A stretch of DNA of 64,000 bases from Rhodospirillaceae bacterium (GTDB taxonomy: Bacteria; Pseudomonadota; Alphaproteobacteria; GCA-2731375), in assembly GCA_018701215.1 (NCBI GenBank), contig JABIWH010000018.1:14861-78860 (forward strand), given 5' to 3'. Position 1 is the first letter of the stretch. Each line of letters opens with the position of its first letter. A model generated the notes under the pieces. That model worked only from the letters and a program-made list of their open reading frames with translations, made no database searches and had not been told where the DNA came from. The position numbers and the translations under genes are program-made. Positions 3,276-61,132 of this stretch are shown here, one piece after another.

Positions 3276-4204
3276 TGACCGGACACATAGGTATTGTCGG
3301 CGCCGGCCTGGTCGGCGGCGGTTGGAGCATCGTTTTCGCCCGCGCCGGCGAACAGGTCCGCGTTTATGACGCGGCGCCCGCTATCCGCGATGATTTCAAG
3401 ACCGTGGTCGGACAACAGCTGGATGATCTGAAAAGCTATGACCTGGTGGCCGATCCCACCGCGATCATGGCCCGTATTCAGGTCTGTGATAATCTGGAAG
3501 ATGTGGTCAAAGGCGCGCGTTTTATCCAGGAATCCGTGTTGGAAGAGACGGAAGTGAAGACGGAAATTTCCAACGCCATCGGTCCATTGCTTGATGCTGG
3601 TGCCGTTGTCGGCAGCTCCACCTCCGGCATTCCCGGCTCCGCCTTTACCGAACATGCGGTGAACCGGGAGCGTTTCCTGGTCACCCATCCGGTCAATCCG
3701 CCCTATCTGGTACCCGTGGTCGAAGTGGTGCCGACGCCCTGGACCGCACAAGACAGCGTCGACGCCGCCCTGGCCCTGATGACCCAGATCGGCCAGTCCC
3801 CGGTATTGGTCCGCCGCGAGGTCGAGGGCTTCATCCTCAACCGGCTGCAAGGCGCGCTGTTGCGCGAGGCTTGGGATCTGTTCGAGGCAGGCTATGCCTC
3901 GGCCGAGGATATCGACAAAACCGTATCGGAAGGCCTGGGCCTGCGCTGGTCCTTCATGGGGCCGATCGAAACCATCGATCTGAACGCGCCGGGCGGCGTT
4001 GCCGATTATGCCGCGCGTCTGGGGCCGCTGTATCATTCGATCCAGAAATCCCGCACCGATCCCCAGCCGTGGAGCGCCGAACTGATCGGCGATGTGGACA
4101 AGGAACGCCGGGCCGCGCTGCCCAGCGACAAATTGGCGGCACGGCGCAATTGGCGCGACCGCCGGCTGATGGCCCTCGCCGCCCATAAAGCCAAGCAGAC
4201 CTGA
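3275..4204 (+). CDS. 3-hydroxyacyl-CoA dehydrogenase family NAD-binding protein
   Basis: GTG start overlapping the upstream stop by 1 nt. N-terminal IGIVGAGLVGGGWS Rossmann motif. 3HCDH-like middle and C-terminal regions (PVVEVVP, EVEGFILNR). Confidence 0.7.
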   Translation: MTGHIGIVGAGLVGGGWSIVFARAGEQVRVYDAAPAIRDDFKTVVGQQLDDLKSYDLVADPTAIMARIQVCDNLEDVVKGARFIQESVLEETEVKTEISNAIGPLLDAGAVVGSSTSGIPGSAFTEHAVNRERFLVTHPVNPPYLVPVVEVVPTPWTAQDSVDAALALMTQIGQSPVLVRREVEGFILNRLQGALLREAWDLFEAGYASAEDIDKTVSEGLGLRWSFMGPIETIDLNAPGGVADYAARLGPLYHSIQKSRTDPQPWSAELIGDVDKERRAALPSDKLAARRNWRDRRLMALAAHKAKQT

Positions 4205-26688: not shown

Positions 26689-26759
26689 TGCTGCCGCGCT
26701 TGTGAATATGGGGAGGAATTCATGGTGTAGCGCCCTCCCTCCGAGGATCGGTTACATAG

Positions 26760-26970
26760 GTTACAACGAGCCGCGCGCGTCTCCTGGCTTTGGGTCATCG
26801 GTCGCGGGGCCTTCCCGGCGGACACGCCGCCAGTGACAGTTTCCCGTTTCCTCGCCATTCACAGTTGCGGGGGCAGCGCCGGATTTTAGAGACCTTGCAG
26901 CCTTTCGGGACAAGGATGGAACACCGGCTTCCGCGCCACGGCGAGCGCAATCTAGCACGCATGGTATCTT
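26760..26970 (-). ncRNA. Cobalamin (adenosylcobalamin) riboswitch in the 5' leader of cobW-cobN-cobO-cobQ
   Basis: Read on the minus strand: ...GAAGCCGGTGTTCCATCC...GCTGCCCCCGCAACTGTGAA...GTCACTGGCGGCGTGTCCGCCGGGAAGGCCCC...AAGCCAGGAGACGCGCGCGGC. The conserved CACUG / GGGAAGGC elements and a B12-box-like AGCCAGGAGAC(G)CGC (plus-strand coordinates 26767-26789) are present. It lies in a 380-bp leader upstream of cobW. Confidence 0.6.
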
Positions 26971-27067
26971 GGCGGCAATCGGCTAAAGGAATTGCCGCTG
27001 GCAAAACTTGGTGCGCCAGCGTAAAGCTAGATATTGTTCAGGTGCGCGTATTTTTTTGGATTTTCCG

Positions 27068-34624: not shown

Positions 34625-35044
34625 TTAGATCCCCTTGTCGAGCAGAGCTTTGATCTTCGGCTTGCTGGTTTGCGCCACCAGACGGCCCACTTCCCCGCTC
34701 TCCCTTATCATGACCAGGGTGGACTGATAGGGCACCTTGTATTGCTTGGCGATGGGCGCATCCCGGTAGGTGTCCCAGTCCACATAGATGAAGGTAATCT
34801 TCTCATCATAGGTTTTGTTGGCGCTTCGTAATGCCTTGATCGCACGGATCTGGCTGCGGCAGGTGCCTCACCAAGGGGCCGCGAATTCCAACAGCACCGC
34901 GCGGCCATCGGCCAGGGCGGATTTCACGGTCTCGGGACTGTAGGGGGCGGTGTCGCTGTCCGCCTGTGCCGCCGATGGCGCCGCCAATGGCGCCAACAGG
35001 GCCGTGACGATGGCGGCCTGCAGAAAAAGTCTACGTAGCATCAT
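34625..35044 (-). CDS. Periplasmic thioredoxin-like protein with in-frame TGA at the first redox-Cys position (candidate selenoprotein, W-U-G-T-C)
   Basis: Minus-strand ORF with an AAGGAA RBS and an ATGATG start. Product: MMLRRLFLQAAIVTALLAPLAAPSAAQA (signal peptide) ...AVLLEFAAPW-[TGA at 34868-34870]-GTCRSQIRAIKALRSANKTYDEKITFIYVDWDTYRDAPIAKQYKVPYQSTLVMIRESGEVG...KGI*. The same frame is open on both sides of the TGA, and the TGA replaces the first Cys of a WCxxC thioredoxin motif. Absent from the ORF track because of the internal stop. Confidence 0.5.
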
Positions 35045-35101
35045 CAAAATTCCTTGTTACCAACATCATACCAGCGCCAATCCAGCTGCAAACCCAGGGG
35101 C

Positions 35102-35839
35102 TCAAACCGAAACGGAGAGATCCTGCAGCCATGCCGGCAGGATATCAAGCAGCTGGTTTTCCAGCCAGTGATCTACCCCAAACAGAATGCCCATGCCCAC
35201 TAACAAGAACGTGATGCCCAGGATCGGCTTGGCCTTGCCGGCCAGCAATCTGAGCGCCCGTTGCCGTTTCACCACCACTTCCCGGGTGCCGAACGCCAGG
35301 GCCAGCACGATGGTGGAAACTCCCAACGCGAAGGCGGTCATGATGGCGCCGGACCAGATTACGTCCTGGCCTTGCGAGGCCAGGGATATGGCCCCGCCCA
35401 GGGTGGGGCCGATACAGGGCGACCAGACCGCCCCCAGCATGGCGCCGCCCAGGAACTGTCAGCGCAGCCCAGTATCGGTGCCGGTGCTATCGCCGCTGCT
35501 CCCCATGGCGTGCAGGCGGGCATCAGCGGTGGCGGCGAACCCGGCGGTGGCGGTGGCAAAGCGCTCGTTCAGGCGCGGGATCAACAACACCAGGCCAAAG
35601 CCGATCATCATCCAGGCGCCGATTTTGGTCATCAATCGCTGGTCAAGGCCGATGGACGATCCCAGCACGATGACGAACAGCCCGACCAGGACGAAAGACA
35701 GGCTCAACCCCGCCGCCAGTGCCAACGGGCCCCGGCGGTCGGCCTGTAACGAGGCCGCCAGGACAATGGGCAGCACCGGCAAGACGCACGGGTTCAAAAG
35801 GGTCAACAACCCGGCGATAAAAGCAAAAAACAATTCCAC
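35102..35839 (-). CDS. ccdA: CcdA/DsbD-family thiol-disulfide transporter (cytochrome c biogenesis protein CcdA) interrupted by a single in-frame TGA
   Basis: The N-part (35459..35839, MELFFAFIAGLLTLLNPCVLPVL...) and C-part (35102..35440, ...AVWSPCIGPTLGGA...) lie in the same frame. They are separated only by TGA at 35459-35461 (...GTDTGLR-TGA-QFLGGAMLGAVWSPC). Both conserved CcdA cysteines (NPC and SPC) are present. Either selenocysteine/readthrough or a nonsense pseudogene. Confidence 0.5.
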
Positions 35840-37761: not shown

Positions 37762-39057
37762 TTAAAAGGGTAGCGTCCCCTTTGATTCCCTTGTGTCTAC
37801 ACCAACAACGTATTCAGTTTCCCAGTCAGGAAACGACCCCCGTTTGATCAAGGTTCGTGCAACGCTTGCGCATAAGTTGGCTGCGTCTTCCAACAAATCC
37901 TTAGGGGGCGGCCCATTATACTTCTTACCCATTTTGAGTTCACCGGTATGCACGGCTTTGGATCTCAAATCATAGGCAACTCTAAGAAGCTTGAAGGTTT
38001 TCATTCGATCCTGTTGGCTGCCGCCCAGGAATGTTGCGCCTCGGATTGATGCCCGGTATGTCATTTCCGTACGTTCTCTAATGCCGTGAAGCAGCATTAC
38101 TTCCAACGAAATTCCAAGATCGATCGCCCGGTCCACAATTTCTTCCCTACCCAGCGCCAGGTTAAGTCGGTCCAAGCCAATTCGCATTACGTTTATTTCC
38201 GCAGGAGAAAATTCTCCGAAGTCATGAAAAAATCTAGTGATAAGTTCCCCATCTAACGCTCTCGGATTCCGAGTTGCCAAATGAGCGGAAACATCGGACA
38301 GAGCTGGTCCTTTGGAATAAGACCGAGCAAAGCAAAGGGTTGCGACCTGTTGTTCGAATTGCGCCCAATGTCCAAGCGCCACCACATGGCTTTCATTCAA
38401 GGCCGCGACACACCGCACCATGTCGTCAACCAATAGTTTGTTTTGTTTGCTGCTCTCGGTTGGAGGAAGTCTTCCCGCTGCCTCGGCTTGTTTGAATGAT
38501 GGAAATAATACCTGGTTTGACGCCGTGCGAAATCGCAATGCGAGGTCGCCCTTTGGCTGCATGGATCTATGCGGAACTTCATCAAATACTGCCTTCTGAT
38601 ATCCATCTGGAACGTCTCCCCAAGGCAGGAGGTCAACGTCACCTCTTAGACTGACGGCTTTGTCCAGTGTGGCTCCGGCCAAAGGTGTGTAAATTTCGGT
38701 TGCGCACGCCGGAGCGGCCGCAAATGCCCGCGCTTCCTCAACGAGCTTCTTGGCGGATTGGCCGTCCATCACGCAATTAATTAGTTGATAAGGAAACGCG
38801 CGGGACTGCACCTGATGGCCGCCACCAAACGCGTCTTGAATCCATCCGTTGCGAATATCTCCAAAAGACGGGTCCTTACTAAAGGCGGCTAATAACTGGG
38901 CCGCGCCACTTTGCTCTACCTCGAATGCTCGCAAAATTACCTCACTCCCAAAATGGCTGCGTGCACTCTCCATATGAAGCAAAGTCTCTTGCGCCTCACT
39001 AGCGGCCTGTTCCGCGAGGCTCACAATATCCATTTCATTTTGCACACCCTTTGCCAT
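37762..39057 (-). CDS. HEPN-superfamily protein (Rx4H motif) with an unrelated ~330-aa N-terminal region; candidate stand-alone defence/toxin (Abi/ApeA-like) gene in a low-GC islet
   Basis: 431-aa ORF at ~50% GC against ~65% in its flanks. The C-terminal region contains LRSKAVHTG (R-x4-H HEPN catalytic motif) inside a predicted helical segment. It is flanked by 360-bp and 230-bp non-coding regions carrying several hairpins. No close family recognised from sequence alone. Confidence 0.45.
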   Translation of the reverse strand: MAKGVQNEMDIVSLAEQAASEAQETLLHMESARSHFGSEVILRAFEVEQSGAAQLLAAFSKDPSFGDIRNGWIQDAFGGGHQVQSRAFPYQLINCVMDGQSAKKLVEEARAFAAAPACATEIYTPLAGATLDKAVSLRGDVDLLPWGDVPDGYQKAVFDEVPHRSMQPKGDLALRFRTASNQVLFPSFKQAEAAGRLPPTESSKQNKLLVDDMVRCVAALNESHVVALGHWAQFEQQVATLCFARSYSKGPALSDVSAHLATRNPRALDGELITRFFHDFGEFSPAEINVMRIGLDRLNLALGREEIVDRAIDLGISLEVMLLHGIRERTEMTYRASIRGATFLGGSQQDRMKTFKLLRVAYDLRSKAVHTGELKMGKKYNGPPPKDLLEDAANLCASVARTLIKRGSFPDWETEYVVGVDTRESKGTLPF

Positions 39058-40632: not shown

Positions 40633-41238
40633 TCATTTCTGGCGCTCGATCTCTTCCTCGACGCCCGCTAGGCGGTCCTTGCCAAAGAAAATCTCGTCGC
40701 CGACATAGAAGGTCGGGCTGCCAAAGGTGCCCCGCTTGGCCGAGGCCGTGGTGTTGGCCAGCAATTCATCCTTCACGGATTGCTCCTGAATACCTGCCGC
40801 CATGGCCGCGCCATCCAAGCCATCCCTGTCCAGGGCAGCCTTGATTACCTCGGCGTCATCCATTTTCAGGCCGTCTTCCCACATATGGCGATACACGGCG
40901 TCCACGTATTGTTCGAAACAGCCCTGGCGCTTGGCCCAAATGGCGCCGCGCATGATTTGCACCGTGTTGACGGGGAAGTGCGGGTTGCGCGCATAGGCGG
41001 TCAGGCCGTGTTTGGTGATAAAGCGCTGCATCTCCAACTGGCCGTATTCGTTTTTGTTTTTGATGCCTTGAAATTGTTCCATTGGCGATTTGTTGTTGGT
41101 CAGTTTAAAAACACCCCCAAGCAATACAGGCACATAGTCACAGGCCACGCCCGTACGTTCGACGATGCCGGGGATCAACTTGTGCGCAATGTAGGCATTG
41201 GGGCTGCCAAAATCGAAATGAAATTCAAACGTAGGCAT
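40633..41238 (-). CDS. 2-hydroxychromene-2-carboxylate isomerase / DsbA-like thioredoxin-fold protein
   Basis: FHFDFGSPNAYIAHK N-terminus and FGSPTFYVGDEIFFGKDRL C-terminal motif typical of HCCA isomerase (DsbA-family, kappa-GST-like) proteins. Confidence 0.7.
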   Translation of the reverse strand: MPTFEFHFDFGSPNAYIAHKLIPGIVERTGVACDYVPVLLGGVFKLTNNKSPMEQFQGIKNKNEYGQLEMQRFITKHGLTAYARNPHFPVNTVQIMRGAIWAKRQGCFEQYVDAVYRHMWEDGLKMDDAEVIKAALDRDGLDGAAMAAGIQEQSVKDELLANTTASAKRGTFGSPTFYVGDEIFFGKDRLAGVEEEIERQK

Positions 41239-48815: not shown

Positions 48816-51026
48816 TCAGCTTGCCCTTTCCACGTATGCGGCCTGCTTGGCGGCCCGTTCTTCCTGACGCTTGCGCCGGGACACCAACGGCGGACATTTC
48901 CCATTGTCATAGAAATTTGCCTGACAGGCCAGGCAATGAATGCATTCATTGGGATTGATGGAGCCATCGGGATGGATCGCCTGCACGGTACAGTTCACGG
49001 CGCAGAGGCGGCACTCGCGGCCGCACTGAAAGCGCCGCTTCAACCACTCGAACATGCGCAGCCGCGCCGGAATGGCCAATGCCGCGCCCAGGGGACACAG
49101 ATAACGGCAGAAAAACCGCTCTATGAACAGGCCCAGGAACAACAGCCCGCCGACATAGGCCACGAATGGCCAATGGCGCACGAAGTGCATGGAGATCGCG
49201 GTCTTGAACGGCTCCACTTCCGAGCCGGCGATGGCCATGATCGTTGAATGCAGCGAGACCGCGAACAGGCCGAGAAAAATGATGTGCTTGATCGGCCAGA
49301 GGCGTTCGTGCAGCGCGAACGGCACGGTGATTTGCGGAATGCGTAACAGCCGCGCCCCTTCGTTCAGCAATTCCTGTAGGGCGCCAAAGGGGCACAGCCA
49401 GCCGCAGAACACCCCTCGGCCCCAGAACAACAGGGTCACGGCGACATAGCCCCAAAGAATGAAAATCAACGGATCAAGCAGGAAGAATTCCCAGCGGAAA
49501 CCGCTCAAAAGGGATTGCACGAAAGTCAGCACATTTATCACCGACAACTGCGCGCCCGCGTACCAGCCGATCCAGACCAGGGTCACCGTCAAATAGACCA
49601 GCCGGACCGAACGATAGAGCCGCTGCCGCTGTACCAAATTATCCTGAAAAACCAGTATCGCGCTTAGGATCGCCAACAAACCCAACAGCGTCGCGATCCG
49701 GCCCACCCGGTCGCGCCAGTTGCGCAGCCACAGGGCGGGTTCCCCCTGGGTCAGCTGTTGCTGCAAATAAAACAGTACCCGGTCCATCTGATTGTCCGTC
49801 TGCGCCGCCGTTTTTACGTCGCCGCCAAGGCGGTAGCGTGCGGGTAATACATAGGACAACGGAAAATCCAGGTGCACCAGGCCGCCCTGTTTGGTTTCCC
49901 GGCTGACCAGTAGTTCCAGGCGCCATTCGGCCAGGGGATTGAAACCGGTATCGGCGGGCAGGACAAAAACCCCGGTCTCGCGCAGCGACGGCGCGGTGGC
50001 GATTTTCACGGACTCAACAAAATGATAATGCTTTTTCACTAGGCGAATAATCTTGTCGCCCTGCACGATCTGAATGCGGTCGAACAGGCCGGAACGGCGA
50101 TACCGCGTCCCCTTGTAGGAATAGATCCCGTTGCCGGCGATGAATATGGCCTGATCCTTTGGGCTCATGTCCCGCAAAAGGCGATTGAAGGCCTGCGGGC
50201 CCAACAGATTCTGGCCAACCCGGGGCGGCGTAATCAGGGCCGTGTAGAGTTCGGAATACAGCTCCTCGGGCGCTTGATCGCCGGGAAATTCCGCACCCGG
50301 AATGGCGACCCTGTCGCGGTAGGCCTGTTCGATATTACCGTGATTAAGGATCAGGTGGGCAATGGAGCCATCGGCGCGCAGTTCCTGCCAATCAGCGGGT
50401 TCATAAGTCTCGCGGTCAAGGCGAACCTTGGCCTGCACCGCCGCCAGCAAACCGCGGCTACGCGCCACGGTTCGGGCCGCCCGGACCACCGAGTCAGCGA
50501 TCACCGAGCTGGAAATGGTGGCGCCCGAAATCGCATCAGGTAGCGCGCCGAGGCGGTTGGCGACTTGGCGCACTTGCCCTGGTTGGTGGATATCGACACC
50601 GGCAAAACCCGCGACAAAATCCCGCAATGCCTGATCAGGAATGCCGATTACCAGAATTGGTTCATTGTGGCTGCGCAACAGCGCGCCGGTGATCAGGCCC
50701 TTATTGGTAATGCCCACCATGATATCGATAGGCTTACCGGAAAACCCAACCGATCCGACAACATCCTGAGTTGAAAAAATATAACCAATGCGGGCGCCGC
50801 CCTTGAAGACCGAGGCCGCCAGAGGCTTGCCAGCCAGGGAACCGGCCCGATCGGCGCCGGGAAACACCTGGGCCAGGGTTTCGGGACCAATGCGCTCACC
50901 CTGCTTGGCCCAGCTGGGCCCGGCAAACAAGATCAGAGGCGATATCAGAGCCAATATCAGAGCCAAATGCAGCGCTCGTGCGTCAATCGTGGAGCGCGCC
51001 TTGCTGAATATCATGCTGAATATCAT
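48816..51026 (-). CDS. nirI: NosR/NirI-family membrane-bound FMN-binding iron-sulfur regulator of nitrite reductase expression
   Basis: 736 aa. Periplasmic FMN-binding domain, 6 TM helices, two C-terminal ferredoxin-type cysteine clusters (CGWLCPFGALQE, CRYLCPLGA, CGRECRLCAVNC, CIHCLACQ). Divergent from nirS. Confidence 0.85.
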   Translation of the reverse strand: MIFSMIFSKARSTIDARALHLALILALISPLILFAGPSWAKQGERIGPETLAQVFPGADRAGSLAGKPLAASVFKGGARIGYIFSTQDVVGSVGFSGKPIDIMVGITNKGLITGALLRSHNEPILVIGIPDQALRDFVAGFAGVDIHQPGQVRQVANRLGALPDAISGATISSSVIADSVVRAARTVARSRGLLAAVQAKVRLDRETYEPADWQELRADGSIAHLILNHGNIEQAYRDRVAIPGAEFPGDQAPEELYSELYTALITPPRVGQNLLGPQAFNRLLRDMSPKDQAIFIAGNGIYSYKGTRYRRSGLFDRIQIVQGDKIIRLVKKHYHFVESVKIATAPSLRETGVFVLPADTGFNPLAEWRLELLVSRETKQGGLVHLDFPLSYVLPARYRLGGDVKTAAQTDNQMDRVLFYLQQQLTQGEPALWLRNWRDRVGRIATLLGLLAILSAILVFQDNLVQRQRLYRSVRLVYLTVTLVWIGWYAGAQLSVINVLTFVQSLLSGFRWEFFLLDPLIFILWGYVAVTLLFWGRGVFCGWLCPFGALQELLNEGARLLRIPQITVPFALHERLWPIKHIIFLGLFAVSLHSTIMAIAGSEVEPFKTAISMHFVRHWPFVAYVGGLLFLGLFIERFFCRYLCPLGAALAIPARLRMFEWLKRRFQCGRECRLCAVNCTVQAIHPDGSINPNECIHCLACQANFYDNGKCPPLVSRRKRQEERAAKQAAYVERAS

Positions 51027-51171
51027 GCGATACAGGGCCTAGTCTTGCAGCGGCATGGTTGGGCCATGGTCAACCCCATGGCCGTCCCTGCCGTGATGCC
51101 TTTCCGACATGGAGAACCCCGCTCACTCAATTTCGCACCATAAAGGATGCCGGCATTTTTCTTACCCGAAA

Positions 51172-51185
51172 ATGACCACGGTCAA
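51172..51185. promoter_or_regulatory. NNR/FNR-type box (ATGAC-CACG-GTCAA) in the nirI-nirS divergent promoter region
   Basis: 13/14 match to TTGAC-N4-GTCAA, centred ~67 bp upstream of the nirS ATG. Confidence 0.45.
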
Positions 51186-51212
51186 GGATTGTTAACTTCG
51201 TATCGCTAATGA

Positions 51213-52997
<1,785 letters not shown>

Positions 52998-53023
52998 GAC
53001 GGACGTCTAATCCAATGTGGCGT

Positions 53024-53051
53024 GGGATCGAAAAGTTAACCTTTTCGATCC
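53024..53051 (+). terminator. Perfect hairpin GGGATCGAAAAG-TTAA-CTTTTCGATCCC after nirS (terminator/attenuator-like, no U-tract)
   Basis: 12-bp perfect inverted repeat 27 bp after the nirS stop and before nirE. Confidence 0.4.
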
Positions 53052-53119
53052 CGCCGTCCGCTACAATCTATGTAGTCGAATTTTACCTAGACGACGCGTG
53101 ACCGCGGGGGACGCTCTAG

Positions 53120-53923
53120 ATGACCAAAGCGAGTACAGTATTTCTTGTCGGCGCCGGGCCAGGGGATCCGGAGTTGTTGACGATGAAGGCGCACCGATTG
53201 CTGCAGGCCGCCGAGGTGGTGGTTTATGACCGGTTGGTTTCGGCCGAAATTCTGGCCCTGATCCCGGCGGGCGCGACCCTGATCAGCGTTGGCAAACAGC
53301 CGCATAACCATCCCATTCCGCAGCCCGAGATCAACCAGTTGCTGGTCCGCCTGGCCAGGGCCGGCCGCAATGTCGTCCGCCTGAAGGGCGGTGACCCTTA
53401 TGTTTTTGGCCGCGGTTCGGAAGAAGCCATAACCTTGGTCGAAAATAACGTGCCATTCGAAGTCGTACCGGGCATTACCTCGGCCTCGGCCTGCTCGGCC
53501 TCCGTCGGCATGCCCTTGACCCATCGCGGCCTGGCCACCGGCGTTCGTTATTTGACCGGCCATTGCCGGGAAGACAGCGAGCTGGATTTTGACTGGCAGG
53601 GCCTGGCCGATCCATCGACCACCCTGGTGATCTATATGGGCATGGCCAATGTGGAACAAATCACCGAGAACTTGATCAAACACGGCGCCGACCCGAAATT
53701 GCCCGCCGCCGCCATCAACAATGGCAGCACGCCGGCGCAACGGCACGTCGTATCCAGCTTGGAAAAACTGGCCGGCGATGCCAAGGCCGCTGAATTCAAT
53801 GGACCGGTATTGTTCGTCGTCGGTCAAGTCGTGGCCCTGCATGCCATCCTGGGCGTGCAAGTGGATGCCAATCAAGATCAGGCTCAAGACGATGAACAGC
53901 CGAATTCCGCCGTGGGCAGCTAG
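53120..53923 (+). CDS. nirE: Uroporphyrinogen-III C-methyltransferase (SUMT) of the heme-d1 pathway
   Basis: TP methylase starting VFLVGAGPGDPELLTMKA. CobA/CysG-C-like, 267 aa. First gene after nirS. Confidence 0.9.
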   Translation: MTKASTVFLVGAGPGDPELLTMKAHRLLQAAEVVVYDRLVSAEILALIPAGATLISVGKQPHNHPIPQPEINQLLVRLARAGRNVVRLKGGDPYVFGRGSEEAITLVENNVPFEVVPGITSASACSASVGMPLTHRGLATGVRYLTGHCREDSELDFDWQGLADPSTTLVIYMGMANVEQITENLIKHGADPKLPAAAINNGSTPAQRHVVSSLEKLAGDAKAAEFNGPVLFVVGQVVALHAILGVQVDANQDQAQDDEQPNSAVGS

Positions 53924-53987
53924 AGCAATTCCGATCCAATGTGGATCGCCCAAGAGCCCTGAGCGATTCTAAGTGCCAAGATTGTCG

Positions 53988-54374
53988 ATGGGAAAAATTG
54001 CTCTATTCTTAAGAATCAGAGCATTTCCTATTCGGAAATGCTTTAGGGCCTGCCTGACCGCTGCCTTGTTTGCGACGTCGATCACTCCAGTTTGCAGCGA
54101 AGAAAGTATTTCGACGGCGCGGCAGACGGAATTGCTGTATCTCTTGCAACAGGATTGCGGCTCCTGCCATGGCCTGACCCTCAAGGGCGGCCTGGGCACG
54201 CCGCTGTTGCCGGAAAATTTAGCGGACAAGCCCGATGATGCCCTGGTTGAGATAATCATGCAAGGGCTGCCGGGTACGCCCATGCCGCCCTGGCGCTTTC
54301 TGCTCAAGGAACAGGAAGCCGCGTTCCTGGTACGGGCCATGAAGACGGGCCAGACACTGAAAATCGAGCAATGA
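53988..54374 (+). CDS. nirC: Cytochrome c55X
   Basis: Signal peptide plus the single heme-c site CGSCHG, then GLPGTPMPPW. ~128 aa. Position between nirE and nirF. Confidence 0.7.
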   Translation: MGKIALFLRIRAFPIRKCFRACLTAALFATSITPVCSEESISTARQTELLYLLQQDCGSCHGLTLKGGLGTPLLPENLADKPDDALVEIIMQGLPGTPMPPWRFLLKEQEAAFLVRAMKTGQTLKIEQ

Positions 54375-54384
54375 AAGTCGAAAA

Positions 54385-55587
54385 ATGAGGTCTTTAGGGA
54401 AAATTTCCACCTTTCTGGCAACGGCCGCTCTGCTCATCTCGGCCATGGCCAACGCCCAAGCTGATGATGGTTTGAAACTGCGCGGCACCGGCGATCTGGG
54501 CCTGGTGATTGAACGCGCCCATGGCAGCATCCAAATTATTGACACGACCCAGCGCGCGGCCCTGGGCCGGGTCAAGGGCCTGGGCGATCTCAGCCATGCC
54601 TCCGCCGTCTATTCCAGGGATGGGCGCTATGCCTATATCTTTGGCCGCGACGGCGGCTTGAGCAAGGTCGATATCCTGCAACGGCGCATCGCCAAACGTG
54701 TCGTGCAATCGGGCAACAGCATCGGCGGCGCGATTTCCCAGGACGGCAGCCTGGTGGCCGTCTCCAATTACAAGCCGGGCGGGGTCAAGGTGTTTGATGC
54801 GGCGACGTTGGAATTGGTGGCCGACATTCCGGCCCAGGCCAGTGACGGCAGCGGCCTCTCCAAGGTGGTTGGCCTGGCCGATGCGCCGGGGCAACGCTTT
54901 ATCTTCTCGCTTTATAACGCCGGCGAGATTTGGATCGCTGATTTTTCAGACCGCGGCAACGTTAAGCTGACCAAATATACTGATATTGGCGAGCTGCCCT
55001 ATGACGGCCTGATCACCGATGATGGCCGCTATTACATCGCCGGCCTGTTCGGCGAGGACGGCATGGCAATGCTGGATCTGTGGCAGCCCGAAAAAGGCGT
55101 GCGCCGTATTCTGGACGGCTATGGCCGGGGCGAGGAGAAGCTGCCGGTCTACAAGATGCCCCATCTGGAAGGCTGGGCCCGGGCCGGTGACGTGATTTTT
55201 CTGCCCGCCGTGGGCCGCCATGAAGTCCTGATGGTCGCGCCCGGCAGCTGGAAAGAGGTTGGGCGCATTGCCGTCCATGGCCAGCCGATCTTTGCCGTGG
55301 CCCGGCCCGACGGCCGCCAGGTCTGGGTCAATTTCGCCCATCCGCTGAACGACACGGTGCAGGTTATCGACGTGCCCAGCCGCAAGATCGTGCACGAATT
55401 CAAGCCGGGCAAGGCAGTGCTGCATCTGGAGTTCACGCCCAGGGGCGAGCAGGTCTGGATTTCCGTGCGCGATGCCAACCGGGTCGATGTCTATGACACC
55501 GAAAGTTTCGCGCGGCTGCAAACCCTGCCGGCGCAAAAACCATCGGGAATTTTTCTCACCGCCCGGGCCAATCGGATCGGGTTATAG
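54385..55587 (+). CDS. nirF: Heme d1 biosynthesis protein NirF (cd1-like beta-propeller, dihydro-heme d1 dehydrogenase)
   Basis: Signal peptide and a 400-aa WD/propeller protein homologous to the NirS d1 domain. Confidence 0.85.
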   Translation: MRSLGKISTFLATAALLISAMANAQADDGLKLRGTGDLGLVIERAHGSIQIIDTTQRAALGRVKGLGDLSHASAVYSRDGRYAYIFGRDGGLSKVDILQRRIAKRVVQSGNSIGGAISQDGSLVAVSNYKPGGVKVFDAATLELVADIPAQASDGSGLSKVVGLADAPGQRFIFSLYNAGEIWIADFSDRGNVKLTKYTDIGELPYDGLITDDGRYYIAGLFGEDGMAMLDLWQPEKGVRRILDGYGRGEEKLPVYKMPHLEGWARAGDVIFLPAVGRHEVLMVAPGSWKEVGRIAVHGQPIFAVARPDGRQVWVNFAHPLNDTVQVIDVPSRKIVHEFKPGKAVLHLEFTPRGEQVWISVRDANRVDVYDTESFARLQTLPAQKPSGIFLTARANRIGL

Positions 55588-55591
55588 GCCG

Positions 55592-56050
55592 ATGCCTGCC
55601 GTGCAAGCCATCACGGAACAGGAGCGGGCGCTGCTGAACAGCTATCAGCGGGATTTCCCGCTGCAAGCCCGCCCTTACGCGGCCATGGCGGACGCTTTGG
55701 GGATGGACGAGGATGCTCTGTTGGCAATGCTGCGGGGCCTGCAGGAACGCGGTATCCTGGGCCGGGTCGGTGTCACGGTGCGGCCCAACAGCGCCGGCGC
55801 CTCCACCCTGGCCGCGCTTGCCGTGCCGCCCGCGCGCCTGGATGCGGTGGCCGATCAGGTCAGCGCGCTGAAGTCGGTAAATCACAATTACGCCCGCGAA
55901 CATGACTTTAATCTGTGGTTTGTCCTGACTGCCGCCGATGACGCCGGGCTTGACCAGGCCTTGGCCGAAATAGCAAGCACGACCGGCCTGACGCCCATCA
56001 AGCTACCGCTGGATGCGGAATACCACATTGATCTGGGGTTCACCCTATGA
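55592..56050 (+). CDS. nirD: Siroheme decarboxylase subunit NirD (Lrp/AsnC-like)
   Basis: ~150-aa AsnC-type HTH + RAM-like protein, first of four paralogous genes (nirDLGH). Start at MPAVQAITEQE. Confidence 0.8.
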   Translation: MPAVQAITEQERALLNSYQRDFPLQARPYAAMADALGMDEDALLAMLRGLQERGILGRVGVTVRPNSAGASTLAALAVPPARLDAVADQVSALKSVNHNYAREHDFNLWFVLTAADDAGLDQALAEIASTTGLTPIKLPLDAEYHIDLGFTL

Positions 56051-56550
56051 TCGAAATCGCCGACAAGGATCATCAGCTGCTGGCACGCCTGGCCGACGGT
56101 TTGCCCCTGGTATCGCGGCCCTATGCCGAGATGGGAGCTGAATTGGGCTTGTCGGAAGACGATGTAATCGCCCGTCTGCGCCATCTGGTAGACAGCGGCA
56201 TCATCCGCCGTTTCGGCCTGATCGTGCGGCATCATGAACTGGGCTATCGGGCCAACGCCATGTCGGTCTGGGACGTCCCCGACGACGAGGTCGATGCCCT
56301 GGGCGCGGATTTGGCCGCCTACCCCTTCGTCACCCTGTGCTACCGCCGACGCCGCCAGCCGCCGCGCTGGCCCTATAATTTGTTCGCCATGGTGCACGGC
56401 AAGGAACGGGCCCATGTGCTGAGCCAGATCGCGCAACTGAACGAACAGCTTGGCCTGGAGCATCTGCGCCACCACGTCTTGTTCTCCACCAAGCGCTATA
56501 AACAAAGCGCGGCCCGCTTCGGCGACCGCGGCCTGGCGAAAGCCGGCTGA
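56047..56550 (+). CDS. nirL: Siroheme decarboxylase subunit NirL
   Basis: Paralog of NirD/G/H (AsnC-like). 4-nt overlap with nirD. Confidence 0.8.
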   Translation: MIEIADKDHQLLARLADGLPLVSRPYAEMGAELGLSEDDVIARLRHLVDSGIIRRFGLIVRHHELGYRANAMSVWDVPDDEVDALGADLAAYPFVTLCYRRRRQPPRWPYNLFAMVHGKERAHVLSQIAQLNEQLGLEHLRHHVLFSTKRYKQSAARFGDRGLAKAG

Positions 56551-57011
56551 TGACGGAAAAACACCCACTGGACGAGATCGACCGCCGGATCATCAATGGT
56601 CTGCAGGGCGGCTTTCCCATCTGTTCTTCACCCTATGCCGCCGTGGCACATGATATGGGCCTTGCCGAGGATGACCTGCTGCGCCGTTTGCAGCGTCTGC
56701 GCACGGATGGTTTGTTGAGCCGTTTTGGACCCATGTATCACGCCGAAAAACTCGGCGGTGCCCTGACCCTGGCCGCGATCTCCGTGCCCGAGGACCGCTA
56801 TGATGCGGTGGCCGAGCAGGTCAATGCCCACGCCGAGGTCGCTCACAATTACGCCCGTGAACATCAACTGAATATGTGGTTTGTTCTGGCAACGGAACAA
56901 TTATCCCGGATCGACGAAGTGATCGCGGAGATCGAAGCGGAAACCGGCCTGAAGGTCTACAACATGCCGAAGAAGGAAGAGTTCTTTATCGGCCTGAGAT
57001 TTGAAGCATGA
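56550..57011 (+). CDS. nirG: Siroheme decarboxylase subunit NirG
   Basis: Paralog of NirD/L/H. ATGA overlap with nirL. Confidence 0.8.
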   Translation: MTEKHPLDEIDRRIINGLQGGFPICSSPYAAVAHDMGLAEDDLLRRLQRLRTDGLLSRFGPMYHAEKLGGALTLAAISVPEDRYDAVAEQVNAHAEVAHNYAREHQLNMWFVLATEQLSRIDEVIAEIEAETGLKVYNMPKKEEFFIGLRFEA

Positions 57012-57021
57012 GGTTCGAGGC

Positions 57022-57516
57022 ATGAGCGAAAGCAGCGATCTCCTGGACGAAACCGACCGGCGCATCATCGTCGCCACCCAGGGCGGCCTGCCGCTGGTGG
57101 CGGAACCCTATGGGGCGGTGGCGGATGAGTTGGGCCTGGATGTTGATGATGTCATGGCGCGCATGCAACGGATGCTGGACGGCGGCCTGATCCGCCGCAT
57201 CGGCGCCGTGCCGAACCATTACGCCCTGGGCTATCGCGCCAACGGCATGTCGGTCTGGGATGTCCCGGATGAAGACATCTCGGAGATCGGGAAAATGGTG
57301 GGGGATTTGGATTTCGTCTCGCACTGCTATCATCGGCCCCGGCATTTGCCGTACTGGAGCTATAACCTGTTTGCCATGGTGCATGGCCGGGACCGGGATG
57401 AAGTATCGGACAAAGTTGAACGGATCGCAAAGTTGATGGGGATCAAGGACCGCAGGCACGAGATTTTATACTCTCACCGCATCCTGAAAAAGACGGGTTT
57501 GCGTTTCACGGCCTGA
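57022..57516 (+). CDS. nirH: Siroheme decarboxylase subunit NirH
   Basis: Paralog of NirD/L/G. Start MSESSDLL. Confidence 0.8.
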   Translation: MSESSDLLDETDRRIIVATQGGLPLVAEPYGAVADELGLDVDDVMARMQRMLDGGLIRRIGAVPNHYALGYRANGMSVWDVPDEDISEIGKMVGDLDFVSHCYHRPRHLPYWSYNLFAMVHGRDRDEVSDKVERIAKLMGIKDRRHEILYSHRILKKTGLRFTA

Positions 57517-57568
57517 GATCGAGTGAAAAGGCCGCAGGGATAAACCGAATAAATTTGGGGACACATTC

Positions 57569-58795
57569 ATGTTTCGTATTAGTCAATATATGCGCGAAAT
57601 AGCTTCGCCCACACCGTTGCCCGCACCCGGTGCGCCAAAGCGTGGACCGTCCGGGCCGGTGGTGATCTGGAATTTGATCCGGCGCTGCAATCTCAATTGC
57701 AAGCATTGCTATTCCATTTCCGCCGACACCGACTTCGCCGGCGAGTTGAGCACGGGTGAAATCTTCACCGTGATGACAGACCTGCGCGGCTTCGGCGTGC
57801 CGGTATTGATCCTCTCGGGCGGCGAGCCGCTGTTGCGCCCGGACATTTTTGAAATTTCGGCCAAGGCCAAGGAGATGGGGTTCTACGTCGGCCTGTCGTC
57901 GAACGGAACCTTGATCAATGACGGCAATATCGAAGCCATCAAAGCGGCCAACTACAACTATGTGGGCGTTTCCCTGGACGGCATTGGCGCCACCCACGAT
58001 GCCTTTCGCCGTAAAGAGGGCGCTTATGACACCTCGCTGGCCGGCGTGCGGTTGTGCCTGGAGGCCGGGATCAAGGTCGGCCTGCGCTTTACCATGACCA
58101 TGGATAATGCCCACGAGCTGCCCAACATGCTGTCCCTGGTCGAGGCCGAGAAAATCGATAAATTCTATCTCTCCCACCTGAATTATGCCGGGCGGGGTAA
58201 CCGCAACCGGGCCGACGATGCCCAGCATGCCAACACCCGGGAAGCCATGGACCTGATGTTTGATACCGCCTGGGATCATGTCGAACGCGGCCTGGATACG
58301 GAATTCGTCTCCGGCAACAACGATGCCGACGGTGTCTACCTGCTGTTCTGGCTGCAAAAACGCTTCCCCGACCGGCCCGAGCTGTTGGCCCACATGCGGG
58401 CTAAGCTGGCACTGTGGGGCGGCAATTCATCCGGCGTCAACGTCGCCAATATCGACAACCTGGGCAATGTGCATCCCGATACCATGTGGTGGCATTACGA
58501 TCTGGGCAATGTGCGCCAGCGGCCATTTTCCGAGATCTGGGTGGATACTTCCGATCCCATCATGGCCGGCTTGAAACAAAGCCCGCGCCAGATCAAAGGC
58601 CGTTGCGGCGCCTGCCAGTATTTCGATATCTGCGCCGGCAACACCCGCGTGCGCGCCCTGCAATTGACCGGCGATGCCTGGGCCGAGGACCCCGCCTGTT
58701 ATCTGAACGATCAGGAAATCGGTATCGAGGACGGCGGTGAACGGCTGGCGGTAACGCCCTATACGCGGGAGAGCCAACGTGCGTTGGGTCTATAG
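57569..58795 (+). CDS. nirJ: Radical-SAM heme d1 biosynthesis protein NirJ
   Basis: CNLNCKHC (CxxxCxxC) radical-SAM motif. C-terminal SPASM-like cysteines (CGACQYFDICAG). 408 aa. Confidence 0.85.
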   Translation: MFRISQYMREIASPTPLPAPGAPKRGPSGPVVIWNLIRRCNLNCKHCYSISADTDFAGELSTGEIFTVMTDLRGFGVPVLILSGGEPLLRPDIFEISAKAKEMGFYVGLSSNGTLINDGNIEAIKAANYNYVGVSLDGIGATHDAFRRKEGAYDTSLAGVRLCLEAGIKVGLRFTMTMDNAHELPNMLSLVEAEKIDKFYLSHLNYAGRGNRNRADDAQHANTREAMDLMFDTAWDHVERGLDTEFVSGNNDADGVYLLFWLQKRFPDRPELLAHMRAKLALWGGNSSGVNVANIDNLGNVHPDTMWWHYDLGNVRQRPFSEIWVDTSDPIMAGLKQSPRQIKGRCGACQYFDICAGNTRVRALQLTGDAWAEDPACYLNDQEIGIEDGGERLAVTPYTRESQRALGL

Positions 58796-60368
58796 CATTG
58801 CCCTATTGCTGGGTGGTTTGAATTCAACGGCGGCGCTGGCCAGCCAAGCCCAGCCCGAGGCAGCAGCTGCCAACGCGCCCGCGCTGTACACCAAACATTG
58901 CGCCGAATGCCACGGCGCCGATCGCCTGGGGCGGATCGGGCCGGCGTTGCTGCCACAAAACCTGCGCCGCCTGCGCCAGCCCAAGGCGGTCAAGGTCATT
59001 ACCAAGGGCCGTATCGCCACCCAGATGCCCGGCTTCGGCGAGGTTCTGAACCAAAACGAAATCGCTTCCCTGGCCAAACTGATCTACACCCCCCTCGCAA
59101 CGCGCCCCGTATGGGGCAAGGCCGAGATCGAGGCCAGCCGGGTGGTCGAGAAAGATGCTCTGAACCTGCCGAACAAGCCAGTCTTCAAGGCCGATCCCTT
59201 GAACCTGTTCGTGGTGGTGGAAACCGGCGATCATCACGCGAGTATCCTGGATGGCGACAGTTTCGAAAGACTGCACCGTTTCCCGACCCGCTTTGCCCTG
59301 CATGGCGGGCCGAAATTTTCGCCGAAAGGCCGTTTTGTCTATTTCGGCTCCCGCGATGGCTGGGTCTCCAAGTACGATCTGTATAATTTCCGCCTGGTGG
59401 CGGAGGTCCGCGCCGGCATCAATATGCGTAACATCGCCATCTCCGCCGATGGTAAATACCTGGCGGCGGCGAATTATCTGCCGCATTCCATCGTGCTGTT
59501 GGACGCCCATGATCTCTCGCTGATGAAGCTGTTGCCGGTGCTGGATTATTTCAAGAAAAAAACCTCGCGGGTTTCCGCTGTCTATCAGGCCCGCCCGCGC
59601 AATTCCTTTATCGCCGCCCTGAAGGACGTACCCGAGATCTGGGAGATCTCGACCGATCCCAACGCCCCGCCCGTGGTCACCGGCCTGGCCCATAGTAATG
59701 AGCAAGGCCATGAAGAGACCCTGACAAACGCCAACAAGGGCCTGTTCGCCCTGCGCCGGATCCTGATCAAGGAACCCTTGGACGATTTCTTCTTTGATCC
59801 GCCCTACCGCAACCTGATCGGCTCGTCACGAGACGGCAAACATGGCGTGGTGGTCAACCTGAACGTGGGCAAGGTGATCCGCAGCGTCGGCCTGCCCGGC
59901 CTGCCGCATCTCGGCTCCGGCATCACCTGGGAATGGCAGGGCCGGCCGGTGATGGCGACGCCGCATCTGCGCGGTGGCCGGGTCTCCGTGATCGACATGC
60001 AGGAATGGAAAGTCATCAAGAGTATCGAGACCAAGGGACCGGGATTTTTCATGCGCGGCCATGAGAACAGCCCCTACGCCTGGGTCGACGTATTCTTTGG
60101 CCCGAACCGGGATCTGATGCATATCATCGATACCCGCAGCCTGGAGATCATCAAGACCCTGCGGCCGGCGCCGGGCAAGACCGCCGCCCATGTGGAATTT
60201 ACCCGCGATGGTTCCCACGCCCTGGTATCGATCTGGGACATGGACGGGGCCCTGGTGGTCTATGACGCCAAGACCCTGCAGGAAGTAAAACGCATCCCCA
60301 TGGTTAAGCCGTCGGGTAAATACAATGTCTTCAACAAGATCACCCTGTCGGCGGGAACCTCCCACTAG
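58779..60368 (+). CDS. nirN: NirN (cytochrome c + cd1-like propeller; dihydro-heme d1 dehydrogenase)
   Basis: Signal peptide, heme-c site CAECHG, then a NirS/NirF-like propeller. 529 aa. Confidence 0.8.
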   Translation: MRWVYSIALLLGGLNSTAALASQAQPEAAAANAPALYTKHCAECHGADRLGRIGPALLPQNLRRLRQPKAVKVITKGRIATQMPGFGEVLNQNEIASLAKLIYTPLATRPVWGKAEIEASRVVEKDALNLPNKPVFKADPLNLFVVVETGDHHASILDGDSFERLHRFPTRFALHGGPKFSPKGRFVYFGSRDGWVSKYDLYNFRLVAEVRAGINMRNIAISADGKYLAAANYLPHSIVLLDAHDLSLMKLLPVLDYFKKKTSRVSAVYQARPRNSFIAALKDVPEIWEISTDPNAPPVVTGLAHSNEQGHEETLTNANKGLFALRRILIKEPLDDFFFDPPYRNLIGSSRDGKHGVVVNLNVGKVIRSVGLPGLPHLGSGITWEWQGRPVMATPHLRGGRVSVIDMQEWKVIKSIETKGPGFFMRGHENSPYAWVDVFFGPNRDLMHIIDTRSLEIIKTLRPAPGKTAAHVEFTRDGSHALVSIWDMDGALVVYDAKTLQEVKRIPMVKPSGKYNVFNKITLSAGTSH

Positions 60369-60382
60369 GGGCCAGGATAGGA

Positions 60383-61132
60383 ATGAATAGGAATGAGGGC
60401 GGCGGCGGCGACAGCCTGCTGATCGTGGTTGGTCATGGCACGGGCACGGCGGCGGGTGATGCCACGCTGCATGCCTTGGCGGCCAAATTGGCGGCCTCCG
60501 GTAATTTTGATCAGGTCAGGGCGGCGGTCCTGCGCGGTACGCCGGCGCTCGTTGATGTTCTAAGCCAGCTTGACGCCGGGCCAGGCGGTCAATTGCCCTG
60601 CCTGCTGCCATTCATGATGAGTGATGGCGTGACCTTCCGTCGGCGCCTGATGGAGGCCATGGCCCATATTCCAAGTCCGCATAGGCCGCTTTTATATCCC
60701 CCCCTTGGCTTGAACCCCGGTCTGGCCCAATTGATCGCCAGGCGGGGTAAAAAGGCGGCCGATGCAGCAGCCTGGGCGGCGGCGGATTGCCGTCTGCTCT
60801 TGATTGCCCATGGCTCGCTGCGGGATCCGGCCTCGGCCCAGGCCGCGCGGGCGCACCAGGAACGTATTGCCGCCCAGCATGAATTTGCCACAGTCGAGGT
60901 CGCGTTTCTCGATCAAGCACCGCATTTGGACGACGTTCTGGCCCAGACTGGCAGCCCTTTGCTTGGTGTCGGTCTATTCGCGGGCGAGGGGCGGCATGGC
61001 GCCGATGATATGAACCAGGCTTTTGCCCTGGCCGCCTGCCCAGCCCGCTATTGCGGCACCATTGGCGGTGATGACGGCTTGGCCACCCTGGCCGTCGGAC
61101 ACTTGAAATCCGCCCCCCAATCGAACCTGTAG
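60383..61132 (+). CDS. CbiX/SirB-type class II chelatase (likely sirohydrochlorin ferrochelatase for siroheme/heme-d1 supply)
   Basis: Two CbiX-like halves (LLIVVGHGTG and LLLIAHGSLRD). 249 aa. Last gene of the nir biosynthetic operon. Confidence 0.65.
   Translation: MNRNEGGGGDSLLIVVGHGTGTAAGDATLHALAAKLAASGNFDQVRAAVLRGTPALVDVLSQLDAGPGGQLPCLLPFMMSDGVTFRRRLMEAMAHIPSPHRPLLYPPLGLNPGLAQLIARRGKKAADAAAWAAADCRLLLIAHGSLRDPASAQAARAHQERIAAQHEFATVEVAFLDQAPHLDDVLAQTGSPLLGVGLFAGEGRHGADDMNQAFALAACPARYCGTIGGDDGLATLAVGHLKSAPQSNL

Follow-up and report, generated by a model that had tools for sequence, protein, structure and literature searches.

An in-frame UGA at the catalytic cysteine codon of an exported thioredoxin-like gene of marine Rhodospirillaceae: a probable selenocysteine codon beside a polymorphic ccdA

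Why should a thioredoxin-like gene, with an otherwise uninterrupted reading frame, carry a TGA precisely at the codon of its catalytic cysteine? The question is raised by a stretch of 64,000 nucleotides (hereafter the window, meaning this whole stretch at its full length) from the genome assembly of a Rhodospirillaceae bacterium (GCA_018701215.1, contig JABIWH010000018.1), in which the gene lies on the minus strand at 34625-35044, next to ccdA, a gene for a thiol-disulfide transporter. A first-pass annotation of the window had proposed it as a candidate UxxC selenoprotein. Our analysis supports this proposal by the conservation of the TGA among relatives, by a hairpin specific to the UGA-bearing forms, and by the ratio of nonsynonymous to synonymous substitution rates (dN/dS) after the UGA. 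Judging from the sequences compared, we put the probability that the in-frame TGA encodes selenocysteine (Sec) at about 90%, and the gene product is very probably a small exported thioredoxin-fold oxidoreductase in which Sec is the attacking residue of the active site (W-U-G-T-C). The features of the gene are as follows.

34625-35044, minus strand: putative exported thioredoxin-like selenoprotein gene, 139 codons including Sec, active site W-U-G-T-C
34868-34870, minus strand: probable Sec codon UGA, aligned with the nucleophilic first Cys of CxxC
34859-34861, minus strand: resolving Cys codon TGC of U-G-T-C, invariant in alignment A1
34961-35044, minus strand: predicted N-terminal signal peptide MMLRRLFLQAAIVTALLAPLAAPSAAQA, with a twin-arginine-like RR-x-F-L motif and an AQA cleavage motif
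35051-35055, minus strand: Shine-Dalgarno-like AAGGA, seen by direct reading 6 nt before the ATG at 35044
35041, minus strand: alternative start ATG, in agreement with the MLRR... start of relatives
34625-34627, minus strand: terminator TAA, end of the thioredoxin-like open reading frame

The open reading frame (ORF) reads MMLRRLFLQAAIVTALLAPLAAPSAAQA-DSD...LLEFAAPW-TGA-GTCRSQIRAIKAL...DKGI-TAA. Direct reading confirmed that the TGA at 34868-34870, which takes the place of the first Cys in W-C-G-x-C, is its sole internal stop, as the first-pass annotation had stated; the frame is open on both sides, and no other stops or frameshifts were found in it. The ribosome-binding site, signal peptide and thioredoxin fold previously noted for this minus-strand gene agree with the AAGGA, with MMLRRLFLQAAIVTALLAPLAAPSAAQA and with a match to the Pfam Thioredoxin family. 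When Cys is written at the TGA, residues 38-137 match this family (PF00085) with 46 bits against a cutoff of 23.5, and the match covers profile positions 7-102 of 103, nearly the whole domain. Classical thioredoxins were the closest solved structures when the family profile was compared to the PDB (E=5e-23). In the active site, Thr replaces the Pro of the canonical W-C-G-P-C, and the E. coli cis-Pro, P76, aligns with Ser in the conserved Q/R-S-T-L of the family. The protein thus has a thioredoxin fold, yet it is not a canonical TrxA. The conserved R/Q-S-T-L lies in the region of 34700-34720 of the window (columns R107/S109 of alignment A1), where E. coli TrxA has I-P-T-L, and such a loss of the cis-Pro is unusual among thiol-disulfide oxidoreductases. 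The N-terminal signal peptide indicates that the protein is probably exported, and its RR-x-F-L motif suggests the twin-arginine translocation (Tat) route. The start MLRRxFLQ (MLRRLFLQ in the window) is kept in close relatives, and many Cys forms start with MKRRxFL. The motif is absent from a subgroup of relatives named here after locus L101, and no match to the thioredoxin-like protein was listed for the hidden Markov model of Tat signals.

If the TGA were a Sec codon, relatives should be found that share it. An exhaustive HMMER search with the part of the protein after the TGA returned 139 representative hits. Most of the full-length hits carry WC[GSPT]TC, the closest being P0004 (APWCGTCRT), and about 25 hits are ORFs of 70-84 residues that begin some 10 residues past the motif. 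In the DNA behind these short ORFs, a TGA stands exactly at the Cys codon in L005 (AKW-U-STC), L006 (AKW-U-PTC), L007 (SSW-U-GTC), L091 and L092 (ASW-U-PTC), and L093-L095 (ASW-U-SSC). Two other candidates were rejected as Sec forms, being Cys forms cut by a long-read frameshift (L008) or by a contig edge (L009). Over the first 95 loci, the codon at this site was TGC in 54, TGT in 28 and TGA in 13. A first genome scan with a single-protein query gave no matches. A scan of GTDB species representatives, seeded away from the CxxC with alignment A3 (alignment A2 was too divergent to serve as a seed), gave 11 loci. Eight of these (L096-L103) have TGA, and all eight come from metagenome-assembled genomes (MAGs) of alphaproteobacterial Rhodospirillaceae, with 45-82% identity, sampled in Saanich Inlet, the Arabian Sea, Antarctica and elsewhere; the remaining three are Rhodobacterales and have TGC. 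In all, 14 distinct sequences share the TGA at this codon; they represent at least nine species-level lineages (eight GTDB species besides that of the window) and have 37-82% protein identity, while 81 distinct homologs have TGC or TGT at the aligned codon. The comparison of orthologs called for by the first-pass annotation therefore shows that they are not uniformly Cys. A metagenome scan seeded on AxWC[GPS]TC[RK]xQ yielded Cys forms only (80 loci), and these were reused as negative controls.

Two peculiarities of the hits are recorded here in their own right. Five codons ahead of its UGA, L007 has a TAG where L101 has Tyr. Three hits (P0005, P0006 and P0129) are repeat proteins of about 2,000 residues, in which residues ~13-51 of the C-terminal fragment were matched in 10-22 stretches.

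The second line of evidence is a small hairpin following the UGA, which has the appearance of a selenocysteine insertion sequence (SECIS). In the window this candidate element, which we call a mini-SECIS, is composed as follows.

34833-34854, minus strand: mini-SECIS, GCC-A-GAUC-CGUGC-GAUC-AA-GGC, with the loop beginning 21 nt past the UGA
34847-34850 with 34838-34841, minus strand: upper stem GAUC/GAUC
34842-34846, minus strand: apical pentaloop CGUGC
within 34833-34854, minus strand: lower stem GCC/GGC and internal loop A / AA

A weak hairpin, GAUC-CGUGC-GAUC, had already been noticed some 20 nt downstream of the UGA; it is real, occupying 34838-34850, with its loop 21 nt after the UGA. Its geometry agrees with the published model of the bacterial SECIS (bSECIS), which asks for an apical loop of 3-9 nt, an upper stem of at least 4 bp, a distance of 16-37 nt from the UGA, a G as first or second loop nucleotide with G or U after it, and a stability of -7.5 kcal/mol or lower (PMC13188914): the window hairpin has a 5-nt loop, a 4-bp upper stem, G-U at loop positions 2-3, and a distance of 21 nt. 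In every form, the stretch 10-45 nt past the codon was searched for a CGUGN pentaloop closed by 4 or more base pairs. Such a hairpin was present in 14 of the 14 distinct Sec forms, and all 81 distinct Cys forms lack it (Fisher p=5e-17, without correction for phylogeny). Its background frequency was 0.2% in shuffled sequences; in native window sequence it was counted 10 times over 128 kb, which amounts to 0.28% per 36-nt interval. The stem-loop proposed for checking in the first-pass annotation is thus conserved, with covariation, in every Sec form and missing from every Cys form.

The hairpin exists in three versions: GAUC/GAUC (or GGUC/GAUC) at +21 nt, GCAC/GUGC or CGCAC/GUGCG at +26 nt, and AGCUC/GAGCU at +39 nt. 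Only the loop and its closing C-G pair (C-CGUGN-G) are invariant across them. The three versions differ in codon phase and overlie non-homologous codons, so that the conservation of the hairpin cannot be a consequence of protein coding. In a low-resolution neighbor-joining tree, the +21 and +39 types form sister groups inside one all-Sec clade, which indicates that the element has moved within a Sec lineage. In the L101 subgroup (L101, L102, L103 from position 3983; L007 from position 213) the hairpin stands 39 nt after the UGA, beyond the 16-37 nt range. The gap there holds a second hairpin of 6 bp, GCACGC/GCGUGC in one form and GUACGC/GCGUAC in another (a compensatory change from C-G to U-A), and this second hairpin may shorten the effective spacing between UGA and SECIS.

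The third line of evidence comes from the codons themselves. In comparisons with L096 and L097, the 79 codons following the UGA have a dN/dS of 0.16-0.18 and the 30 codons preceding it one of 0.21-0.28. The window gene has one conservative lineage-unique substitution only. Purifying selection after the UGA indicates that the sequence beyond it is translated.

The neighboring ccdA gene complicates this picture. A ccdA-like gene adjoins the thioredoxin-like gene in 83 of the 95 loci and in 8 of the 11 genome loci; it is located upstream in close relatives and downstream in the group of L093, and none is adjacent in the L101 subgroup. In the window, it is interrupted.

35102-35839, minus strand: ccdA, thiol-disulfide transporter of the DsbD_TM family (Pfam PF02683/PF13386), upstream of the thioredoxin-like gene
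35459-35461, minus strand: premature TGA in ccdA, at the codon of the conserved Gly in L-R-G-Q-F before TM4

The first-pass annotation had correctly reported that ccdA carries a single in-frame TGA of its own, found at 35459-35461, and had argued that this lowers the odds of a random pseudogenising hit. The argument did not survive. At the position of the ccdA TGA, homologs have Gly (56) or Ser (5) and never Cys, and the CGUGN hairpin motif is absent downstream of it. In close Sec-form relatives (74-87% identity) the gene is always intact, with GGG or GGT, and it is intact, where adjacent, in the eight other TGA-bearing species. The stop is also polymorphic. The best full-length ccdA cluster representative is 88% identical, and fragment clusters hold CcdA members of 245 residues with Gly127 that are otherwise identical to the window protein. 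Two contigs have GGG where the window has the ccdA TGA: L107 (1182-1184), which keeps the TGA of the thioredoxin-like gene, and L108 (1131-1133), which differs from the window over 1,931 nt only by two changes in this one codon. Overall, about 180 contigs carry the nonsense allele and 3 contigs the intact one. There is no decay of ccdA: it shows three lineage-unique substitutions, and dN/dS after the TGA is 0.05-0.07. Since the intact allele is otherwise identical, the TGA must be very recent, and absence of decay would be expected even if the gene were dead. The ccdA TGA is, as the compared alleles present it, an ordinary recent, high-frequency, polymorphic nonsense change and not a Sec codon. 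Being a recent premature stop, it gives the Sec reading of the neighboring gene no support.

Could the ccdA TGA nevertheless be a second recoded codon, for Sec or for programmed read-through, so that both genes of the operon would be UGA-recoded? The dominance of the nonsense allele and the strong constraint without decay downstream of it would fit such a notion. So would the UGA-C context, UGA-C being reportedly the weakest terminator in E. coli (Poole et al. 1995), and a GC-rich hairpin, GGGGCG-GUCUGGU-CGCCCU, that starts 23 nt after the UGA and has its loop 29 nt after it. However, the same hairpin also forms in relatives with an intact Gly codon (L099, L100), and is therefore a by-product of coding for G-A-V-W-S-P-C. 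Together with the Gly or Ser of homologs, the intact genes of close relatives, the missing CGUGN loop motif of the lineage, and a GGG allele that differs from the window in that codon alone, this makes recoding of ccdA unlikely. We consider it similarly unlikely that, in a Sec-decoding cell, the UGA-C and the fortuitous GU-loop hairpin (loop 29 nt downstream) lead to read-through as Trp or Sec at a rate sufficient to keep CcdA working. If this were true, the population would offer a snapshot of a new recoding site arising beside an established selenoprotein gene. The stop in ccdA may be tolerated by read-through at UGA-C, it may be compensated by another DsbD or CcdA, or it may mark the start of module loss. 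The change from GGG to TGA may reflect a multinucleotide mutation with a subsequent sweep, an adaptive loss, or a tolerated read-through. Two substitutions in one codon, in an otherwise identical 1.9 kb, hint that the cause was a multinucleotide event or selection rather than drift.

Two further contigs, L109 and L110, were considered as instances of the ccdA TGA in a divergent strain, and were rejected, since each is a mosaic that matches the window exactly across the TGA. In both (L109 651-1151, L110 441-1091) the 5' part of ccdA, about 270 nt, is ~80% identical to the window and the 3' part is 100% identical. The mosaics reflect either recombination between co-occurring species or chimeric assembly. 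Four homologs (P0036, P0069, P0089 and P0130) appear to be fusions of a part of CcdA directly to the thioredoxin-like domain, the joined part being the first CcdA transmembrane helix (…LTLINPCVLPVLPIV…) or the C-terminal part of CcdA.

Several observations weigh against selenocysteine at the UGA of the thioredoxin-like gene. The 23-nt window element has a stability of -5.9 kcal/mol, weaker than the -7.5 kcal/mol of the bSECIS model; -11.5 kcal/mol is obtained for the 48 nt after the UGA, which form two separate hairpins, and in L096 and L097 an extra lower helix reaches -16.3 kcal/mol. The minimum free energy after this UGA is no different from that of shuffled sequences (z=-0.38), in a comparison of the 60-80 nt after each UGA in which z-scores range from -0.38 to +0.66 and are uninformative for so small a hairpin. 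No Rfam SECIS family was matched at gathering or permissive thresholds. Alignment A4, in which two of the four core pairs (7-17 and 8-16) change on both sides, with a covariation score of 0.40 against 0.10 in shuffles (none of 500 shuffles reaching 0.40) and with pairing in only 16-49% of cells when the partner is shifted by 1-3 columns, was itself chosen for pairing, so that the pair counts are partly circular and the weight rests on the Cys-form, shuffle and native-background controls. The genes selA, selB and selD and a tRNA-Sec were not found in the 64-kb window or in the fetched flanks; the window contains no tRNA that we could find and no sel gene among its annotated ORFs, and no tRNA-Sec was found in 15 related loci. 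In favor of Sec, its use is documented in Alphaproteobacteria, including Rhodospirillales (PMC8124441). Finally, the adjacent ccdA is interrupted in the window genotype, which could mean that the module is starting to decay.

Among the explanations other than Sec, the one that fares best accepts that the UGA is decoded and attributes this to near-cognate insertion of Trp or Cys, or to a suppressor tRNA, with the hairpin merely stimulating read-through. It draws on the failure to find Sec machinery in the window and the fetched flanks, and on the high frequency of a second in-frame UGA, that of ccdA, in the same population. However, this UGA is aligned with the redox Cys, its hairpin has the spacing and the G-U loop features of a bacterial SECIS, and Trp at the position of the nucleophile would inactivate an enzyme whose gene is under purifying selection. 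General suppression is hard to reconcile with the use of UGA as a terminator: at a G+C content of 61%, 28 of the 55 predicted genes in the window, many of them Pfam-supported, end in TGA. This being the normal stop for about half of the genes, the code is not reassigned. A scan of the window for other in-frame TGAs, based on G+C at third codon positions (GC3), found shadow frames only. We regard decoding as another amino acid as quite improbable.

Even less probable is that the thioredoxin-like gene is a pseudogene, hit by chance at its catalytic Cys codon in a decaying operon. The genuine premature stop of ccdA in the window genotype and the weakness of the local hairpin speak in its favor. 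Yet a chance nonsense mutation would have to recur in 14 distinct, widely divergent sequences, with ccdA intact where adjacent in eight other species, and it would account neither for a dN/dS of about 0.17 after the TGA in an ORF free of further stops and frameshifts, nor for a hairpin restricted to the TGA forms.

The sequence itself appears reliable. Four independent assemblies (L001-L004, from ENA, NCBI and JGI) agree in every letter of the two-gene region, the NCBI copy being in MAG GCA_018660755.1, contig JABJJR010000047. The exact 58-residue fragment that ends in ...APW before the TGA is recorded from 156 contigs, with occurrences in no fewer than five NCBI MAGs labelled 'Rhodospirillaceae bacterium', and the fragment called after the TGA from 152+55 contigs. 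With the same DNA in assemblies from three sources, both fragments on so many contigs, and TGA in related species too, there is practically no chance that the codon is a TGC or TGT misread by sequencing or assembly.

If the UGA is indeed read as Sec, the following mechanism can be envisaged. As the ribosome nears the UGA, a complex of SelB, GTP and Sec-tRNASec would bind the mini-hairpin at its apical loop, 21 nt further on, and deliver Sec at the UGA, in competition with RF2. The selenoprotein would then be exported by means of its N-terminal signal peptide with RR-x-F-L. In the periplasm, the selenolate would attack substrate disulfides or oxidised thiols, giving a selenenylsulfide that would be resolved by Cys63, and the oxidised U-C pair would be re-reduced by CcdA with electrons from cytoplasmic thioredoxin. 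By analogy with the CcdA-ResA/StoA and CcdA-Etrx systems, we infer that the thioredoxin-like protein may be a periplasmic reductase recycled by CcdA, with Sec as the attacking and Cys63 as the resolving residue. In the dominant genotype with the ccdA stop, the reductant might be lost, come from another DsbD or CcdA encoded elsewhere, or be present at a low level through UGA-C read-through. The ccdA nonsense polymorphism could reveal whether the selenoprotein depends on its adjacent electron supplier.

How does this family relate to what is known? Thioredoxin-like (Trx-like) UxxC selenoproteins of marine bacteria, named Trx-like 1, 2 and 3, were described by Zhang and Gladyshev from the Sargasso Sea in 2005 and from Global Ocean Sampling (GOS) data in 2008 (PMC2398784). 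In the GOS set, Trx-like 1 had 321 and Trx-like 3 had 212 members, against thousands of Cys homologs (PMC2398784), and the table of a 2026 review lists several Trx-like families, including 'Thioredoxin (Trx) PF00085 UxxC' (PMC13188914). The window family shares with them the thioredoxin fold, Sec as the first residue of CxxC and occurrence in marine bacteria (PMC2398784, PMC13188914), as well as a large excess of Cys over Sec homologs and a bSECIS directly after the UGA. It differs by its predicted export and its usual location beside ccdA, by its W-U-G/S/P-T-C motif, and by Ser in place of the cis-Pro. It very probably belongs to the marine Trx-like UxxC class, either inside or beside Trx-like 1, 2 and 3. 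None of the NCBIfam selenoprotein models covers it, and none of the papers searched links CcdA with a Trx-like UxxC selenoprotein.

CcdA-dependent extracytoplasmic reductases include ResA and StoA of B. subtilis, Etrx1 and Etrx2 of S. pneumoniae, and CcmG/TlpA. All these are Cys proteins of the TlpA/redoxin class, and they are membrane-anchored or lipoproteins. The window protein resembles them in being a small exported thioredoxin-fold protein encoded beside a CcdA/DsbD-type transporter, presumably its reductant. By contrast, it best matches classical thioredoxins, has a cleavable signal peptide and would use Sec. The window locus has the ccdA adjacency and the predicted export signal of such a reductase module.

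The element after the UGA can be compared to the SECIS of E. coli fdhF and fdnG and to the bSECIS model: all are stem-loops in the coding sequence past the UGA, with a small GU loop and within the 16-37 nt range. The window element is much smaller than those of fdhF and fdnG, with an upper stem of 4 bp, a lower stem of 3 bp and -5.9 kcal/mol. Its lineage also differs in having the invariant C-CGUGN-G pentaloop, with one subgroup placing it at 39 nt behind a covarying hairpin. With TsoB, a rhodanese/DsbD fusion-like protein (NCBIfam NF045694), the locus shares the combination of a DsbD-type membrane domain with a Sec-containing thioredoxin-like domain. Membership in TsoB was rejected: at a cutoff of 805 bits, the two window proteins reached 23.6 and 14 bits in weak partial matches. 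Unlike in TsoB, the window genes are separate, a rhodanese domain is absent, and the Sec motif is different (UxxxxU in TsoB).

That UxxC thioredoxin-fold proteins rank with the most abundant selenoproteins of marine metagenomes is already known. The new points are minor: the exported, CcdA-linked context, a SECIS of very small size whose pentaloop is lineage-specific, and the neighboring nonsense polymorphism. For annotation, the consequence is that the NCBI MAG entries, which split the thioredoxin-like gene into two hypothetical proteins, should be corrected to one real gene, and the same holds for many Rhodospirillaceae-like MAGs of marine oxygen-minimum zones in which it is split in this way. 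The Sec reading would add an exported, CcdA-linked thioredoxin to the Sec-using redox proteins of the cell envelope. The mini-SECIS, with 7 bp in total and -5.9 kcal/mol, falls under the bSECIS stability cutoff, so that searches starting from the SECIS would miss the family. The invariant C-CGUGN-G pentaloop offers a concrete candidate for the motif recognized by SelB in this alphaproteobacterial group.

Elsewhere in the window, a DsbA-like gene (40633-41238, minus strand) was tried as a second selenoprotein on account of a 6-bp CGUGG hairpin at about 41149, and the hairpin was dismissed as a chance match. The gene is of the HCCA-isomerase type, with FGSPNAY in place of CxxC and without a TGA. 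A 431-residue ORF (37762-39057, minus strand), 3 kb from the thioredoxin-like gene and ccdA, has a GC3 of 0.49 against about 0.75 in its neighbors and matched nothing in Pfam or PADLOC; it is probably foreign DNA. A cobalamin riboswitch (26757-26979, minus strand, 88.6 bits) lies upstream of a cobalamin biosynthesis cluster of the cobW-cobN type (~12.5-26.7 kb). A denitrification cluster extends over 48816-61132 and includes a nirS-like cytochrome cd1 nitrite reductase gene (51246-52997), two further proteins with cytochrome d1 domains, and a radical-SAM gene of the heme d1 biosynthesis type, which is consistent with an organism of oxygen-minimum zones.

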